A DNA stretch of 64,000 nucleotides from Vulcanimicrobiota bacterium (GTDB taxonomy: Bacteria; Vulcanimicrobiota; Vulcanimicrobiia; Vulcanimicrobiales; Vulcanimicrobiaceae), in assembly GCA_963833095.1 (NCBI GenBank), contig CAWHWQ010000001.1, forward strand, positions 704,001-768,000, written 5' to 3'. Positions 21,001 through 42,000 of this stretch are shown in pieces. How positions within the stretch are numbered: position 1 is the stretch's first letter; every line of letters starts with the position of its first letter. The position numbers were made by a program.

Positions 21001-24000
21001 CGTCTGCGGCGCGCGCACCGAAGACTTCTCCTTCTCGCGGCGCGCACGGCGAGCCGCAACGATATCATCGCGCGAGGCGCGGCTGGCGGCCGTCTCGACG
21101 CGTGCCGGCCTTTGGCCGGACCCACTGAGCGATGTATGGAGCCTGCGCGCGGCCGCTTCGAGTTGGCGCTTGCGGAACCCGAGCACGAGCGGAGCGGAAA
21201 AGAAGATCGAGTGATAGCCGCCCGAGCAGATGCCGACGAGCAATGCGAAGGCGAAGTTCTTCAGGCTCGCGCCGCCAAGCGCTAGCAGAGCGACAAGCGT
21301 AATGATCACGGTCGCGAGGGTATTGAACGAACGTGTCATCGTCTGCTTGATCGATTCGTTCACGATCGTCTCATAGGGGATGCCGACCATGAGCTTGGTG
21401 TTCTCACGGATTCGGTCCAAAATGACGATCGTGTCCATGACCGAGTAGCCGATAACCGTCAGCACTGCGGCGAGGAACGCATCGTCGGCCGGACGATTGG
21501 CGAGGGCGTAAATGCCGATCATCATCGCTGCGTCGCGCACCAGCGCGATGACGGTCACGAGGCCGAAGATGTAATTCCAGCCGAAGCGGAACGCGATATA
21601 GATGAACTGGATACTCAGCGCAATGACCAACGCCCAGAGTGCGTCGCGCAAATACTCGCCGCCGAGCGTCGGGCCGATCGCGGTAATGCTGAGCTGGCTC
21701 GGGTCGATCGGCGCGGCCTTGTTCAGCGCATCTTTGAGCGGGACGGAATCGTTGGCAAACGAGGTCTGCGTCTCGATCGTGAAATGCTTGCCGTCGGTTC
21801 CGGCGGTGTTAATGCGCTCATCCGCGAGATTGAGCGGGGCGAGCGCGGCCGTGACCGCATCCGTGGTCACGGGTTGCGTGAACGCAACGTCGACTTCGGT
21901 ACCACCCGTGAAGGTGAGCCCTAAACGCAGCATCTGTTTCGGCTGGAAACCGTGCCCGCCTTCGAAGCCGTGATAGATCATCGCGCCAAAACCAATCGCG
22001 ATGATGAGATACGAGATCGCCGAAACGGTGCGGAACCAGCCGACGATATTCCAGTTGAGCTTGCGGAAAAACATGATTTACGCCTGCGCCCCCGTCGTCT
22101 TGGCAAAGATGCCAACGTCTTCGGACTTGACGCCGTAGAACTCGGGAGCACTCAGAAGATTGTTATCGACGAGCACGTCGACAAAGAATCGGGTGATAAA
22201 GACGGCTGTGACCAACGAGACCACGGTGCCCCAGAAGAGCGTGAACGCGAAGCCCTTCACCGTGCCGGTGCCGAGCATGAAGAGCACGCCGGCGCCGACG
22301 ATCGTGGTGAAGTGGCTGTCGAAGACCGCCGAGAACGCGCGGGAGAATCCGACGCGTACCGAAGCGCGCATCGTCTTGCCGTTCCACAGCTCTTCTTTGA
22401 TACGTTCGAAGATCAGGACGTTGGCGTCGACCGCCATACCGATCGAGAGGACGAAACCGGCGATGCCGGGCAGTGTCAGCGTCGCGTGCGAGAGCGCCAG
22501 AATCCCAAGCATTACGATCACGTAGATCACCAGCGCGAGGTCAGCCAAGAGGCCGGGCAGGCGATAGACGGCGATCATAAAGAGCAGCACGAGGCCTAGG
22601 CCCAGCATCGACGCTTTTAGCGATTGGACCAAGTCGATTTTTCCGAGCGTCGGGCCGATCGACTCTTTCTCGATGATCGTGATCGAGGCAGGCAGCGCCC
22701 CGGCATTGAGTTCGTTAGCGAGCGTGGTCGTTTGCTCTTGCGTGAATTGGCCGGTAATCTCGCCGCTGTCCGAGATCTCGCCGATGATCGTCGCAGCTGA
22801 AACGTAACGTTCATCGAGAAAAATGGCGAGCAGTTTTCCTATATTCTTGTGGGTCAGCTCTGCGAACTTCGACGGGTCCTTCGTTTGAAAGGTGATGTTT
22901 GGGTTGCCGGATTGATCGTAGCTGGCCTGCGCGCCTTTGAGTTCTTTGCCGGTGTACACGACCGCACCGCTCGCGTCGTACGCGCCGTGTTCCACGTATG
23001 CTTGCGCCGCGGCACGCTGCTTCGCGGTCACACCGGGAACCTTGGGATTGTTGACGACCGACAACGCCTGTTCGGCCTTCGCGCTGACGTCCGGCGGCAT
23101 GATCTTATAGGTCAGCACCGCGACCTGTTTGATCAGTTGCTCGGCCTCATCGGGATTTTTGAGATTTGGAATCTCGACCAGAAGCCGGTCACTGCCGACA
23201 TTGCTGATCTCGGGCTCCGTGACGCCTAGCGAATTGATGCGTTGGTCGATGACCTGTCGCGTCTGCGCTTGGATATCCGATGTGATTGGACCCGATGCCG
23301 CCGTTGGCGAGAGCTGAAGCAACAGGCGCGAGCCGCCCTGAAGGTCGAGCCCGAGATGAATCTTCTGATCGATCGGCAGGCATGCCCACAACGAATAAGC
23401 GACCACGCCGGCGATCACCAGCGCTTTGACAAACGGTTTAAAAGTGTTCCAGCTCATGCGGCTTTCGACGGTGGTCCCAAAGAAAGGGCCCAGGCAGGGC
23501 GCCGGGGCCGGGAGGTCTTTAACCTAGAGACTGTATCAGCCTCCCGCGCCCTCGTCAAAGGAGGGCTCCCTGTCAAAGAAAGTGCGGCTACGAAACGTAA
23601 GCCCGGGCCCCGATCATGCCCGCCGGCGCGAGCGGCATTTCGGGCGGCAGCTCCGCATAGCTGAGCACGTCGGCGCGAATACCCGAGCGTACCAAGAGAT
23701 CGGACAGCACGGGGCGCAGCGATGCGCTGCAGAGCAGCGCCGAGCGATCGCGCGGAACGCGCGCAATATAAGCGGCAACCTCGTCGCGCAAGTCGAGTGC
23801 ACGCTTCGGATCAGGCGCAAGCTCGGCGCCGTATCCGACCCATTGGCGCACGAGGTCACGATCGTACTCGGCGTCGATCACCAGCGGTTCGAGACATTCG
23901 ATTCCTCGTCTGCGCAGAAGATCCGGAAGAATCGCGCGCCGCGCCACTTCAGCGAGCTCGCGCGGATCGCGCGAGGGCGACTCGAGCATCGCCTGCAGCA

Positions 24001-39000: not shown

Positions 39001-42000
39001 GGCAAGCTGGTCGGCGTGGAGCGGGCTTGCAAAAAGCGGCGCACGGTCCGGGTGTCCGACGATCGTCGCGACAACCGCAAATCCCACCAAGAGAGCGACG
39101 ATGGCAGCCGCGACAATTCGCATGGACGGTGGAAGCGCACGCACGCGAGCGATAGTCGAGTGCAACTGCAGCATGTTAGATCTGTAAGTTCAGGAGCGTT
39201 TGCACGGTCTGCGCACTGCGCTGCGCGGCGGCTGTCGCGACCGAGAGCGCCACATCGGCCTGAGCTCGCTGATACATTGCATCTTGCAGCGAGCCGGTGC
39301 CCGCGGCATAGGCATCCTCTGCCTGCGTCGCGTCACCAAGCGCGCGACCAATCGCATCAAGAGCTCCGGCAAAATCCGATCCGCAGGACGCGGCTCTAGC
39401 TTCCAAGTCCTCGAAGGGCGACCGACCGGAGGAGGGTGGAACCGTGTCTGGCGTAAGCAGTTCGACCTTCACGCCAGTCGCCCCATATCGATCGTGCGTT
39501 CTTCGAGCGTCTTGCCTACATCGAAGAGCGAGGCGTCCGATTCGTAGGCGCGCGACGCGTTCATCACTGCAATCATCTCGGTAATCACGTCGACGTTGGT
39601 TCCCCGCTCCTGATGCGTGCCCGCGAACTGCACGGCAGTGCCGTCGCCGTCTTCGGTAAGCGCAAATTCGGGAATCAGGCGAGCGTAATGGCCATTTGGA
39701 CCCGCCGCCTCGGCGGCGGCCACATTTCGCGCGCACACGTCGAGCGCCGCGCGCTGCGCGTCCATTGCGGCGGCCGCGCTCGCGAGCAGATCGATCATTT
39801 CGTCACCGCCTTGATTTCCTCGAGGCGCGCATGCATCGCGCCGAGCAGCGCTTCATCGAAAATTGCCGCCTGCGCGGTCTGCGCCATCGCCGCGTCGGCG
39901 GTTCGCCCACCCTCCCCGGCGTTCGCGCGGGCGATAACGTTTTGCGCTTGCTGTAATCGGACTGCAGCGGATGCGAGTCCGCCGCGCAGGGATTCGGCTA
40001 CGTCGAACATGTCACGAGGGTAGGGATGGGGGATGGCCGGGGCGCATCTGCGATGTTACGAAGATATGAACAAAGGGCGATTCGAATCGTTTACCGACGG
40101 AGTGTTCGCGTTCGCGATCACGCTGTTGATCTTGGGAATCGCGCTCCCGGTGATGCACGATCCGAGCGAACGCGAACTGCGTCACGCGATCCTCTCCCTG
40201 TGGCCGAACTTCATCGCCTTTGCATTGAGCTTCGCTGTGATCGGGATCATGTGGCAGAACCACCATGCTCTCTTCCGCTTCGTCGCGCATATCGATCGTA
40301 AGACCGTTGCGTTCAACTTGCTCCTGCTCTTCGGCACCGTGGTCATTCCTTTTGCCACCTCGGCGATGGGCGCGTATCCGACCATGCATGCGTCGACGCT
40401 GCTCTACGGTATCGTGCTCACGTGGTGCTCAACGTCCTACAACCTGCTGCTAAGCCACCTCATTGAGAGCGGGGCGTTCGAAGCATCAGTCACGCGAGAG
40501 CAGATCGCGCGTTCAGTCGTTGCCTATCGCGTAGGCTGGTTTACCTACGTTGCCGCGACCTTACTCGCGCTCGTGGTGCCGTTGCTTAGCTTTGCCGCGT
40601 ACGTCGGCGTGACGTTCTACTACTACGTTCCCCACGGCGTTGACGCTGACGTCCAATGACGATTTTCGCCTATGGGTTCGGTATGGCCATCTCAATCGCG
40701 CTTGCAACGGCGATCGGCAATGCCTGGGTGCGCGAACACCGCAACGGTGTCTGGACGCTGACGATGGCTGGAACGGTCGCAACCGTCGCGGTCCTTTTCG
40801 GCGTCGCCGTGGGATGGGGCTTAGCGCAATACTTCGCGTTTATTGCCGAATCCGCGACAGGTCGCATGTAGGATCAATGCGCCGGAGCGAGTTCCGGCGC
40901 GGCCGATTGTTCGTCGAGGTGCTCACCGTGTCGAAATACTTCGTCCGACGGCGCGACCCACATGTACACGTTCGGGATCAGGAGTAGCGTGAGCACAAGC
41001 GAGCTAAGCACACCGCCAATGACCACGATGCCGAGGCTCGAACGCGAGATCGAGCCTGGGTCGAGCGCGAGCGCGAGCGGCAGGTTTCCCGCGACAACCG
41101 AAAAGCTGGTCATGACAATCGGGCGGAACCGGGTGTGTGCGCTCTCCAAGATCGCGTCGAGTTTGTTTGTTCCACGCGTTCGAAGTGTGTTGGCATAGTC
41201 CACAATCAGGATCCCGTTCTTCGTCGCAATCCCTATTAAGAGAATCGTCCCAATCAGCGAAAAAAGGTTGAGCGTTCGATGCGTCAGCACGAGTGCCCCG
41301 ACGGCGCCGATTGCGGCCACGGGCACGGAGAAGATGATGATGAACGGGGAGAGGTAGCTGTTGTAGAGCGCCACCATCAGCAAGTAAACAAGAATGACCG
41401 AGATGATCATCGAGGTTCCGATGCCGACCAGCGCCTGATGCATGAAGTCCTGTTGGCCAAGCGGCGCGGGGCGCACGACAATGCTCGGGGGCAGGTGAAG
41501 CGACGGAATCTTTTTCATGAGCGCATTTTCGACACTCGACAACGACGAGTCGGGTGCAACGTTCGAGTCGACGTGAATGACGGTATTTCGGTCGGTGCGC
41601 GTCATCAGCGGCGGGGTTGGTGTGGATTCAAAGGTCGCGATATCGCCGAGATAGACAATCGAGCCATTCGAGGCGCGAATCGGCACGTTGCGCAGCAAAT
41701 CGAGATTGGTCTGGTCCTGGGGCGGATAGATGACCTGCACTTGTTCGAGGCCCGACGTCGTTTCGAATTGCGTCGCGACGTTGCCGCCGAACGCTGCGCC
41801 TGCGGCTTGCGCCGCCTGACCCACGTCGACACCTAATGCCTGGGCCTTCGCGCGATTGAAGATGATCGAAATCTCGGGCGTAAGCGCCGCGCCGCTGCTG
41901 TTGACGCTGGTCGCGCCTTTGACGCTCTTGAGTGCGTCGAGCACTTTCTGCGCGTAGGGCGTCGGATCGCCGCCGGTCACGTCAGTGACGAGAAAGTCCA

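Follow-up and report, generated by a model that had tools for sequence, protein, structure and literature searches.

What does a flagellar-type operon do when it encodes neither motor, filament nor outer rings, and why is it kept beside a canonical flagellum? The locus was analysed in a window of 64,000 nucleotides, position 1 of which is position 704,001 of contig CAWHWQ010000001.1.

Gene content of the operon

An ORF listing combined with Pfam and NCBIfam searches reproduced the run of 23 consecutive minus-strand genes (g00830-g00852, 23588-40010) described in the first-pass annotation, with 4-nt overlaps at many junctions. Seventeen are of flagellar type and follow the classical fla-operon order: FlgB-like, FlgC, FliE, FliF-FliG_M, FliH, FliI, SLT, Asp-protease-like, FliK-like, hook/rod protein, FliM-like, FliN, FliP, a six-gene insert, FliQ, FliR, FlhB and FlhA (Table 1). 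This content and order are far beyond chance. The flagellar genes had been listed correctly before; the Asp_protease_2 gene between SLT and FliK-like had been omitted, and the insert between fliP and fliQ, reported as metF only, does contain metF but comprises six genes.

Table 1. Features of the operon in window coordinates, in order from its first gene, with dN/dS where available for the single gene
Feature	Position	Strand	Evidence	dN/dS
FlgB-like, first gene, 71 aa	39795..40010	-	Position only	0.10
FlgC-like proximal rod protein, 109 aa	39469..39798	-	Pfam Flg_bbr_C 26.2 bits, over cut-off; NCBIfam FlgC E 2.5e-12, below cut-off	0.036
FliE-like	39176..39736	-	Pfam FliE E 0.0035, below cut-off, residues 117-186
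FliF fused to first part of FliG middle domain, 490 aa	37702..39174	-	Pfam YscJ_FliF 41-215, YscJ_FliF_C 256-358, FliG_M 427-476, all over cut-off	0.079
FliH, short, 169 aa	37224..37733	-	Pfam FliH 27.8 bits, over cut-off	0.29
FliI-type ATPase without N-terminal beta-barrel domain, 348 aa	36181..37227	-	Pfam ATP-synt_ab E 8.6e-61	0.11
SLT lytic transglycosylase, 198 aa	35601..36197	-	Pfam SLT E 1.1e-30	0.07
Asp_protease_2-domain protein, hydrophobic N-terminal segment	34049..35791	-	Pfam Asp_protease_2 E 6.1e-17	0.12
FliK/SctP-like substrate-switch (T3S4) protein, 178 aa	33470..34006	-	Fold of AF2 model
Hook/rod-family protein, FlgE/F/G D1 and C-terminal helix, without D2, 240 aa	32743..33465	-	Pfam LlgE_F_G_D1 27.0 bits, exactly at cut-off; NCBIfam FlgEFG subfamily E 5.3e-11, below cut-off	0.083
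FliM homologue, CheC-like middle domain and SpoA C-domain, 268 aa	31940..32746	-	PDB profile and fold	0.14
FliN, 94 aa	31659..31943	-	Pfam FliMN_C E 3.6e-25; NCBIfam fliN 99.2 bits, over cut-off	0.028
FliP	30934..31590	-	Pfam FliP E 2.1e-71; NCBIfam fliP 225.5 bits, cut-off 217.45
Genus-specific part of insert	29261..30869	-	Pfam Gp49, HTH_37, Vgb_lyase below cut-off
HigB-like	30528-30869	-
HigA-like	30200-30646	-
Vgb_lyase-like fragment	29696-30184	-
115-aa ORF	29299-29646	-
Weak fliP 3' duplicate	~29261-29341	-	Remnant in window, E 0.001
metF and O-methyltransferase block	27683..29244	-	Between fliP and fliQ
metF (MTHFR)	28345-29244	-	Pfam MTHFR E 1.4e-91
O-methyltransferase	27683-28348	-	Pfam Methyltransf_3 E 3.7e-39
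FliQ	27359..27628	-	Pfam Bac_export_3 E 1.8e-19
FliR	26649..27575	-	Pfam Bac_export_1 E 1.8e-25, residues 75-295
FlhB with NPTH autocleavage motif	25624..26907	-	Pfam Bac_export_2 E 2.8e-71, residues 92-413
FlhA	23588..25627	-	Pfam FHIPEP E 2.2e-192	0.057

The 71-aa FlgB-like, 268-aa FliM-like and 178-aa FliK-like proteins matched no Pfam or NCBIfam model. The FlgB-like gene overlaps flgC by 4 nt, and of the 7 full-operon loci, 6 gave a tblastn match in the corresponding position. The FliE-like gene lies between flgC and fliF, the slot where FliE passes the cut-off in B-type operons, and its orthologue from the other order of the class gave FliE E 6e-4; its listed ORF overlaps flgC, and translation probably begins further in, for a product of about 95-100 aa. 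Internal starts are also probable for FliR (close to the fliQ stop), for FlhB (near 26650) and for the Asp_protease_2 protein, whose ORF as listed overlaps SLT by 191 nt. The latter gene occupied this slot in all full-operon loci but G177 (6/7), and the same query did not find it in three loci of the other order; the SLT slot is identical in B-type operons. The hook/rod protein matched a 272-aa FlgE-like protein in the same slot of a B-type operon (BLASTP 7e-17), which itself scores best with FlgE models.

The FliK-like protein takes the slot of the Pfam-positive FliK of B-type operons. A profile search against the PDB returned FliK_C 2rrl as best match at E 0.25 only. With the AF2 model (C-domain pLDDT 80-92), Foldseek placed 2rrl first (E 4e-3) and the PscP SS domain 5cuk second, and VIA wide gave the same order (2rrl, Z 8.2, rmsd 2.8, 83 aligned; 5cuk, Z 7.9; following row, Z 6.7), so that the FliK/SctP-like identity proposed earlier was confirmed by the predicted fold. 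The modelled fold (AF2 pLDDT 87) likewise confirmed the FliM-like protein: its SpoA domain matched 4yxb in the profile search against the PDB (E 1.5e-15), and the top Foldseek matches of the model were full-length FliM of the Salmonella C-ring (8wiw and 8umd, E ~5e-10), followed by FliM middle domains.

Among the gate and ATPase genes, FlhA scored 603.8 bits with NCBIfam FlhA vs 484.3 with SctV, both below cut-off, and was 36% identical to the canonical FlhA of the genome. The NPTH motif of FlhB lies at residue 337, and the Asn-Pro pair was present in 8/8 orthologues (NPTH in six, NPEH and NPAH in one each). FliI carries the Walker A motif GAPGAGKS and matched NCBIfam SctN (312.8 bits) and FliI (303.9 bits), both below cut-off, from profile position ~72-80 onwards. 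In five other loci the orthologous open frames span 410-429 aa and include the N-domain, which was lost in the window's genus and in genus g4. In Salmonella, the FliI N-terminal domain is tied to ring formation and FliH binding.

The inserted genes encode Gp49/HigB-like, HTH_37/HigA-like, a Vgb_lyase-like fragment, a 115-aa ORF, MTHFR and O-methyltransferase. Among the loci compared, HigBA was shared by one alone, L042 from the same genus, which likewise bears a 41-aa FliP C-terminal duplicate. metF stood between fliP and fliQ in 6/6 family loci, and was not found there in the sister-family locus or in two loci of the other order.

Distribution, selection and origin

Synteny was conserved in 7/7 other full-length loci examined, taken from six other genera, a second genome of the window's genus and the sister family. 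FliF-FliG-like orthologues were found in 147/160 genomes of the window's family, 3/3 of the sister family and 18/18 of the other order, whereas Flagellin_N was matched in 77/160, 3/3 and 0/18, respectively; at least 70 carriers of the window's family are therefore without a flagellin match. Twelve of the 77 are weak matches in genus g4, and in the four examined genomes with weak matches of this type these fell in an HlyD-like coiled-coil protein or the orthologous locus. Retention without flagellin, as claimed in the first-pass annotation, was thus borne out, as was its presence in sister genera; beyond the order, the system spans the whole class and is kept in the other order, where it is split into two loci. 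Since 13/160 family genomes, several of them 96-100% complete, gave no FliF-FliG match, some lineages can do without the system.

The genome does hold the complete canonical regulon reported before (three flagellins, one FliG_C, FlgI), several of its genes being split by frameshifts in this assembly. The operon proved to be a divergent paralogue of it, with 27-53% identity to the canonical-cluster copies at C1:150-174 kb. The two systems occur together in the window's genus and in many family genomes, as expected if the operon were an accessory set unable to work without the canonical flagellum, supplying, for instance, alternative gate or rod subunits to one shared organelle. We consider this very improbable: the operon itself encodes a complete set of parts from the ring to the hook, and a single FHIPEP per genome was found in 5/5 non-flagellated genomes. 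Together with the figures for the other order, this contradicts an accessory role in non-flagellated carriers, because the system is kept where the canonical set was not found.

A remnant without present function, decaying after a flagellar system was duplicated or lost, would agree with the shortened FliG, FliH, FliK and FliI, the loss of FliJ and FliO, the insertion of unrelated genes and a toxin-antitoxin pair, and the absence from 13 family genomes. It is equally improbable, however, since all operon reading frames are intact, dN/dS was 0.03-0.35 in 20/21 genes against the same-genus genome, and order and content are kept across three families of the class. Purifying selection also acts among the non-flagellated genomes (dN/dS of fliF-G, 0.05-0.19 in 24 pairs), so the earlier statement that the operon is not decaying held.

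In the FlhA phylogeny, the mini FlhA sequences formed a clade (100) whose sister group was the B-type FlhA of other classes (99), and descent from the genome's own canonical flagellum was rejected. B-type operons of other classes of the phylum have an identical gene order with full FliG (including FliG_C), FliJ, FliO and FliK. The phylogeny shows that the pared-down system derives from this second type of flagellar operon in the phylum, which is complete.

Two rod genes (g00964-965, C1:849094-850422) had been noted as lying elsewhere, which is correct, but they are not stray: this flgF-flgG pair and a FliA/WhiG-like sigma factor form a second locus of the pared-down system. The three genes were kept in 5/5 non-flagellated genomes, and a separate canonical flgFG pair is also present in this genome. 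FlgM was found in only 1/5, so that sigma/anti-sigma coupling is conjecture.

Absence of a motor and possible function

By Pfam, the FliF fusion is without FliG_N and FliG_C. As claimed previously, the operon has no FliG_C torque domain, the only one in the genome belonging to the canonical cluster. The FliF tail aligned with residues 105-152 of B-type FliG (EPPHT vs EHPQT, BLASTP 2e-5), ends after the first FliG_M helices, and is the most conserved stretch in a 26-sequence alignment; nearly all of the 120 database relatives listed share the protein's Pfam architecture of YscJ_FliF, YscJ_FliF_C and FliG_M. For Chlamydiaceae, a fusion of FliF with FliG_M has been published before (PMC4768692).

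The retained rod, hook-family protein and ruler, and the full FliG with FliG_C in the nearest relatives, the B-type operons, could suggest a reduced B-type flagellum that still serves motility, its stator, torque interface and filament being too divergent or borrowed. This is very unlikely given where the FliF tail stops; in addition, FliG_C and MotB_plug, like FlgI, were each found in 0/5 non-flagellated carriers (97-99% complete), and flagellin was not found in those searched. Moreover, the paper on the cultured family member (PMC9758169) reports movement by pili and neither flagella nor a flagellin gene. By its name, Vulcanimicrobium alpinus belongs to the same family.

We favour, with a probability of roughly 0.6, a functional non-rotating flagellum derivative made of a type III export apparatus, a rod and a short hook-like stub, without motor, filament or outer rings. 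We infer its assembly, the FliF tail-FliM contact, non-rotation and cargo as follows. The FliF ring in the membrane would surround the FliPQR-FlhB-FlhA export gate, and its C-terminal tail, which copies the stretch at the beginning of the FliG middle domain that binds FliM, would directly hold the FliM/FliN cytoplasmic platform, dispensing with the N and C domains of FliG and hence with any stator contact. FliH-FliI would bring substrates to the gate, which would export FliE, the FlgB/C-like and, from the second locus, the FlgF/G-like rod proteins, while the SLT enzyme would open the peptidoglycan. The 240-aa hook-family protein may polymerise on the rod, and the short FliK-like ruler may switch FlhB, whose Asn-Pro site is kept, to a later substrate class. 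Secretion through flagellar T3SS genes by non-flagellated bacteria is described for Lysobacter (PMC7688988).

Several observations count against this export device: Pfam recognises neither FliJ nor FliO in the operon, FliI has lost its N-terminal domain here, the system is missing from the 13 family genomes without a FliF-FliG match, there is no outer-membrane conduit for export beyond the periplasm, sequence-profile support for FliK-like is not significant, and the putative FlgB-like and FliE assignments draw on position and sub-threshold scores. It is possible, at a clearly lower probability, that the apparatus assembles and exports its own parts only, as a periplasmic rod or stub serving as envelope anchor, landmark or sigma-controlling assembly checkpoint. 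No candidate effector, chaperone, tip or outer-membrane pore gene was seen in the operon by Pfam, which would fit such a role, as would the absence of the L/P-ring protein FlgI from the five non-flagellated carriers and the sigma factor accompanying flgF-flgG in all five non-flagellated genomes. Some 20 genes, however, are costly for a landmark, the rarity of FlgM speaks against a checkpoint, and the retained FliK-like T3S4 protein and FlhB Asn-Pro site are most easily explained by a later substrate class.

The flgF-flgG-sigma locus, the FliM-like and FliK-like folds and the B-type origin are new here. Collectively, these results indicate that a soil bacterium and its whole class keep a motorless export machine with a rod, which, being without motor, filament and outer rings, is probably a non-rotating secretion or envelope device.

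Gene content of the mini operon and its companion locus

The mini operon, a reduced flagellar-type type III gene set, comprises 23 back-to-back genes, many of whose junctions overlap by 4 nucleotides. All five families of the export gate (FlhA, FlhB, FliP, FliQ and FliR) were found above their Pfam cut-offs, and the Asn-Pro cleavage site of FlhB was retained in 8 of 8 orthologues. FliP was the sole gate protein to pass an NCBIfam equivalog cut-off, and nearly all operon proteins stayed below the NCBI equivalog cut-offs. Flagellar NCBIfam models scored slightly higher than injectisome models for FlhA, FliP, FliQ, FliR, FliN and FliF, whereas the injectisome models SctU and SctN slightly exceeded the flagellar ones for FlhB and FliI. 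Such mostly sub-cut-off scores, together with this mixed ranking, indicate that the gene set is very divergent.

Features of the mini operon, from its upstream to its downstream end, and of associated loci (window positions unless a contig is named; G000 is the source genome)
Feature	Position (strand)	Description and basis
Mini operon, genes 1-23	23588-40010 (-)	ORF listing, Pfam, NCBIfam
1, FlgB-like		71-aa ORF; no Pfam/NCBIfam match, assigned by position only
2, FlgC-like		over Pfam domain cut-off
3, FliE		sub-threshold match
4, FliF-FliG		490 aa; YscJ_FliF, YscJ_FliF_C and, downstream of the second membrane segment, FliG_M
5, FliH		Pfam/NCBIfam
6, FliI	36181-37227 (-)	348 aa, without N-terminal domain
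7, SLT		Pfam
8, Asp_protease_2 protein		Pfam
9, FliK-like		178-aa ORF; no Pfam/NCBIfam match
10, FlgE/F/G-D1 protein		240 aa; hook/rod family
11, FliM-like		268-aa ORF; no Pfam/NCBIfam match
12-13, FliN, FliP		
14-17, HigB-like, HigA-like, Vgb_lyase-like fragment, 115-aa ORF	29261-30869	unrelated genes, behind fliP
18-19, MetF, O-methyltransferase	27683-29244	unrelated genes
20-23, FliQ, FliR, FlhB, FlhA		
Divergent membrane-protein ORF	40033-40659 (+)	208 aa; no NCBIfam match
flgF-flgG-sigma locus	G000:C1:849097-850506	outside the window
Canonical paralogues	C1:150-174 kb	whole-genome tblastn
Indel-dense patches of the canonical cluster	G000:C1:154000-162000 and 167000-171000	comparison with a same-genus genome

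The ATPase complex was represented by FliH and by the catalytic domain of FliI, which retains Walker A. Neither FliJ nor FliO was matched among the operon ORFs scanned with Pfam and NCBIfam, a search that small divergent proteins could escape. When the window was compared with loci L035 and L037-L040, the N-terminal domain of FliI, some 75-80 residues long, proved to be absent from two genera, the window's own and g4, and present in five other loci; the two genera that lack it are sisters in the FlhA tree. Among the rod proteins, FlgC-like, FlgF-like and FlgG-like exceeded the Pfam domain cut-offs, and the hook-family protein is without a D2 domain. Pfam scanning of the operon ORFs revealed no secretin SctC, SctD/SctJ rings, needle SctF or translocon; it also showed no FliG_C and no stator genes in the mini operon, FliG being present only as the FliG_M fragment carried by FliF. 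On the opposite strand, the 208-aa ORF begins 22 bp from the first start codon of the operon, so that the operon promoter must overlap that ORF.

The first-pass annotation had left two rod genes elsewhere on contig C1 as a loose end. They do lie outside the operon and encode a FlgF-like and a FlgG-like protein; behind them lies the gene of a FliA/WhiG-like sigma factor. This trio is adjacent and conserved in all five non-flagellated carriers (near-complete genomes with the mini system and without flagellin), and the source genome has a separate canonical flgF-flgG pair on contig 4. The flgF-flgG-sigma locus belongs to the mini system and not to the canonical flagellum. FlgM was found in only one of the five non-flagellated genomes, so a conserved anti-sigma partner is unsupported.

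The operon is split at the junction between fliP and fliQ, which is a hotspot for insertions. metF (MTHFR) occupies it in 6 of 6 loci of the family, and is not there in the sister family; in the window an O-methyltransferase gene follows, and genome G011 has an extra 7.6 kb between metF and fliQ. Across the loci compared, HigBA was seen only in the window's genus, where it adjoins a duplicated fliP 3' end. In the window, the segment holding the HigB/HigA-like toxin-antitoxin pair is flanked by a degenerate copy of the fliP 3' end, and the same-genus genome G202 combines HigBA with a clear 41-aa duplicate of the FliP C terminus. This arrangement suggests a mobile insertion with duplication of its target.

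Proteins without family matches and the FliF tail

The Pfam FliM model did not match the FliM-like protein. Its orthologue profile, however, picked out SpoA domains among PDB entries (4yxb, E 1.5e-15), and an AlphaFold (AF2) model built from 42 sequences (pLDDT 87) retrieved full-length Salmonella FliM in C-ring structures as the best Foldseek hits (E about 5e-10), with FliM middle domains and CheC/CheX ranking next. By profile and modelled fold the protein is a FliM, with a CheC-like middle domain and a C-terminal SpoA domain.

The FliK-like protein displayed a conserved N-terminal helix, a basic disordered spacer (residues 42-86) and a C-terminal alpha/beta domain with a pLDDT of 80-92 in the AF2 model. 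The only two T3S4 structures, FliK_C 2rrl (E 4e-3) and PscP 5cuk (E 5e-2), took ranks 1 and 2 in Foldseek. An independent all-against-representatives structural search (VIA wide) also placed them ahead, with Z 8.2 for 2rrl and 7.9 for 5cuk against 6.7 for the next row, although with that tool Z values around 8 exceed background by little. Sequence profiles alone gave no significant match, either in a PDB profile search or in hhalign comparisons of the alignment with one FliK of the B-type, the second complete flagellar operon found in other classes of the phylum (E 0.37), or with three FliK sequences (E 0.17). The FliK/SctP-like assignment made in the first pass stands by fold and not by sequence profiles, and we regard this protein, with moderate confidence, as a mini FliK/SctP-type ruler.

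The hook/rod protein is homologous to a 272-aa B-type protein in the same operon slot (BLASTP, 7e-17), which itself gave its top scores on FlgE models. The tail of the FliF-FliG protein aligns with the start of FliG_M, the EHPQ-type motif reading EPPHT in the mini system, and is the best-conserved stretch of the protein in the alignment. FliF-FliG is about 60 residues shorter (426-449 aa) in some genera, namely at locus L040 (genome G209) and in the rows for g24, g41 and g49. For these short forms the match in the genome search was confined to the first 250 residues, although tblastn at the locus aligned the protein over its full length, which suggests an internal deletion within the periplasmic part.

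Distribution, phylogeny and relation to the canonical flagellum

The separateness of the mini operon from the canonical flagellar regulon was confirmed by whole-genome tblastn, in which the canonical paralogues showed 27-53% identity. The genome carries three flagellin genes, a single FliG_C, located inside the canonical cluster, and FlgI in the same cluster. When compared with a same-genus genome, the canonical cluster was dense in 1-bp indels, which occur in patches; 200 indels not divisible by 3 were counted in 25.7 kb of canonical sequence versus 30 in 16.1 kb of the mini operon. Canonical fliM, fliP/Q, fliR, fliI and fliG are split across frames, and flhA, flhB, fliK and the housekeeping genes nearby are unaffected. 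At 84-89%, the nucleotide identity between the cluster and its same-genus counterpart is normal. True ongoing decay is no likelier to explain these frameshifts than assembly error. In the mini operon, dN/dS against the same-genus genome was 0.03-0.35 in 20 of 21 genes; the value for FliE, 0.54, comes from an over-long ORF overlapping flgC. Eight genomes of one non-flagellated genus gave 28 pairs for fliF-G; with four excluded for saturated dS, dN/dS was 0.05-0.19 in the remaining 24.

With the FliF-FliG protein, used as the marker of the mini system, 235 of the 251 genomes searched in the phylum gave a match (E <= 0.001). Full-length orthologues (41-90% identity) were present in 147 of 160 genomes of the window's family and in 3 of 3 of the sister family, and orthologues spanning residues 16-471 (37-39% identity) in 18 of 18 genomes of another order of the class. 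Matches in all remaining families of the phylum were weak (best E 4e-30), in keeping with ordinary FliF. Flagellin_N was detected in 77 of 160 family genomes, 3 of 3 of the sister family and 0 of 18 of the other order, which leaves at least 70 genomes of the family with the marker and without a flagellin match. Twelve of the 77 family matches were weak and all belonged to genus g4; the four examined map to a coiled-coil protein resembling HlyD or to the locus orthologous to it, and these weak matches were rejected as flagellin. The tallies include seven genomes flagged as unpublished, on which no single claim depends. Completeness of the five non-flagellated carriers is 97-99%, and three are assembled as single contigs. 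Each has a single FHIPEP gene, and FliG_C, FlgI and MotB_plug were each found in none of these five near-complete genomes.

When every operon protein was aligned by tblastn to 20-kb loci, each of the 7 full loci showed the same gene order; in the other order of the class the set is divided in two loci, flgC-SLT and FliK-slot gene-flhA. Relatives of the nearest outside FlhA were sought in a scan of genome contigs. The matches listed were ordinary flagellar FlhA of many phyla, some of them used as named rows in the trees, and among them no mini operon was seen outside the phylum, which does not establish its absence there. Six close relatives of operon proteins (P0041, P0046, P0144, P0243, P0490 and P0509) are labelled Candidatus Acidoferrales, Candidatus Binatus or Verrucomicrobiae, and their neighbours in the match lists are named Eremiobacterota genera. 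They are probably mislabelled MAGs, in which case public names understate the uniformity of the host range.

After an FlhA search over 1.84 billion representative proteins, FlhA trees of 58 and 29 rows, to which named flagellar FlhA, five named SctV and other FlhA of the phylum were added, were inferred with IQ-TREE, and these runs were relied on. In both, the five SctV formed an outgroup clade (support 100) and the mini FlhA fell on the flagellar side. The mini FlhA formed one clade (100), sister (99) to B-type FlhA from other classes of the phylum, and the canonical FlhA of this genome grouped elsewhere with the A-type copies, as it did again on 29 rows. Forcing mini and A-type FlhA together cost 74.5 log-likelihood units (p-AU 7e-5; 29 rows, LG+G4), the group tested having been chosen once the tree was known. 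The clade of mini and B-type FlhA was basal (SH-aLRT 84-94), a position from which we draw no claim and which may reflect long-branch attraction to the outgroup. FastTree placements, with the mini clade inside an unnamed clade of 29 rows or basal to all flagellar FlhA, were set aside as inconsistent. In four genomes of other classes (G004, G007, G014 and G062; L164-L175) we observed two full-length FlhA paralogues each, in addition to several shorter ORFs whose match to FlhA (23-37% identity) is confined to its C-terminal half. These sequence relationships argue that the mini system is neither a recent copy of the canonical flagellum nor an injectisome.

The B-type operons (G004, G007) share the mini gene order, fliE-fliF-(fliG)-fliH-fliI-(fliJ)-SLT-fliK-short flgE-like-fliM-fliN-(fliO)-fliPQR-flhBA, including the short hook-family protein and SLT in the matching slot. 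Only the B-type has a separate FliF, a full FliG (N, M and C), FliJ, FliO, a full-length FliI, a FliK of 299-357 aa with a Pfam Flg_hook match and a Pfam-positive FliM; with this complete gene set it is presumably a working motor. The sister grouping of FlhA and the shared gene order together show the mini system to be a reduced descendant of this second flagellar system.

Comparison with known systems and proposed function

The injectisome resembles the mini system in its flagellar ancestry, its loss of motility parts and its gate, ATPase, SpoA-domain platform and T3S4 ruler. The mini system differs in having an FlhA outside the SctV clade (support 100), rod proteins of the flagellar kind and, in place of SctJ/SctD, a full FliF. 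A closer parallel to its fused ring protein is found in the Chlamydiaceae, bacteria without flagella, for which Bergeron (2016, PeerJ, PMC4768692) describes a naturally occurring FliF with a cytoplasmic end homologous to the FliG M region and proposes that it joins the membrane ring to a FliM/SctQ-type platform. Both are natural FliF-FliG_M fusions. The chlamydial protein is about 330 aa, without RBM1 and the FliF-specific domain, and occurs with few flagellar genes and a true injectisome alongside, whereas the mini FliF retains YscJ_FliF and YscJ_FliF_C and is part of a complete operon that also encodes a gate, an ATPase, a rod, a hook-like protein and a ruler of its own. The fusions probably arose independently.

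Lysobacter enzymogenes is reported as non-flagellated and as retaining flagellar T3SS genes (PMC7688988, PMC7277350), with secretion of several proteins depending on fliI and flhB (PMC7688988). It is thus comparable to the mini system in keeping flagellar export genes in a soil bacterium without flagellin (PMC7688988). The Lysobacter genes are remains of its single flagellar system; the mini system is a strongly diverged, separate paralogous system, which some genomes have in addition to the canonical flagellum. Its restructuring comprises the FliF-FliG_M fusion, a mini FliK and a mini hook, and the system is conserved class-wide. A hat-shaped, non-flagellar inner-membrane assembly related to the fT3SS is described from flagellated species by Kaplan et al. 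(2022, PMC9380563); no dedicated gene set is known for it. A cultured member of the family has no flagella and no flagellin gene according to PMC9758169, whose gene table (Table S8) lists fliN only. Our full-text literature search found no description of the mini system.

Taken together, ring, gate, platform, ATPase, rod and length-controlled stub parts are kept, and those for turning (FliG_N, FliG_C and stator), outer-membrane passage (P ring) and swimming (filament) are lost, which makes the mini system most likely a non-rotating export apparatus, as predicted from its parts. Its platform would be tethered through the FliF-borne FliG_M piece, a putative FliM contact. The system may instead serve a purely structural or regulatory purpose. 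The lack of a recognisable FliJ or FliO in the operon, the loss of the FliI N-domain in two genera and the absence of the system from 13 of 160 family genomes count against a working machine. Among the sequence data sets listed for window 30900-40400, four were DNA sets from a single study and none was RNA. We give a probability of roughly one in three to the full reading, namely that the class Eremiobacteria harbours a third sort of type III nanomachine derived from the flagellum, independently evolved, non-rotating and either secretory or envelope-spanning. Its origin would lie in the second flagellar system, from which motor, filament and rings were shed and whose ring protein became joined to the part of FliG at which FliM docks. 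Such a machine would have its own sigma factor, occur in a culturable organism and be a living analogue of the hypothesised first step towards the injectisome.

To our knowledge, only two lineages of type III machine are well characterised, flagellum and injectisome, and the conversion of a motor into a secretion device has, as far as we know, been inferred solely from phylogeny. The mini system appears to repeat the first steps of this conversion independently, with motor, filament and rings gone and export core, rod and ruler kept. It lends itself to testing, as an unreduced B-type relative survives in the phylum, an ordinary flagellum lies alongside in some genomes and, by family name, a cultured non-flagellated relative exists. 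The fused FliF would offer a natural minimal way for the MS ring to hold a C-ring-type platform in the absence of FliG, and so bears on the assembly of C-rings and sorting platforms.
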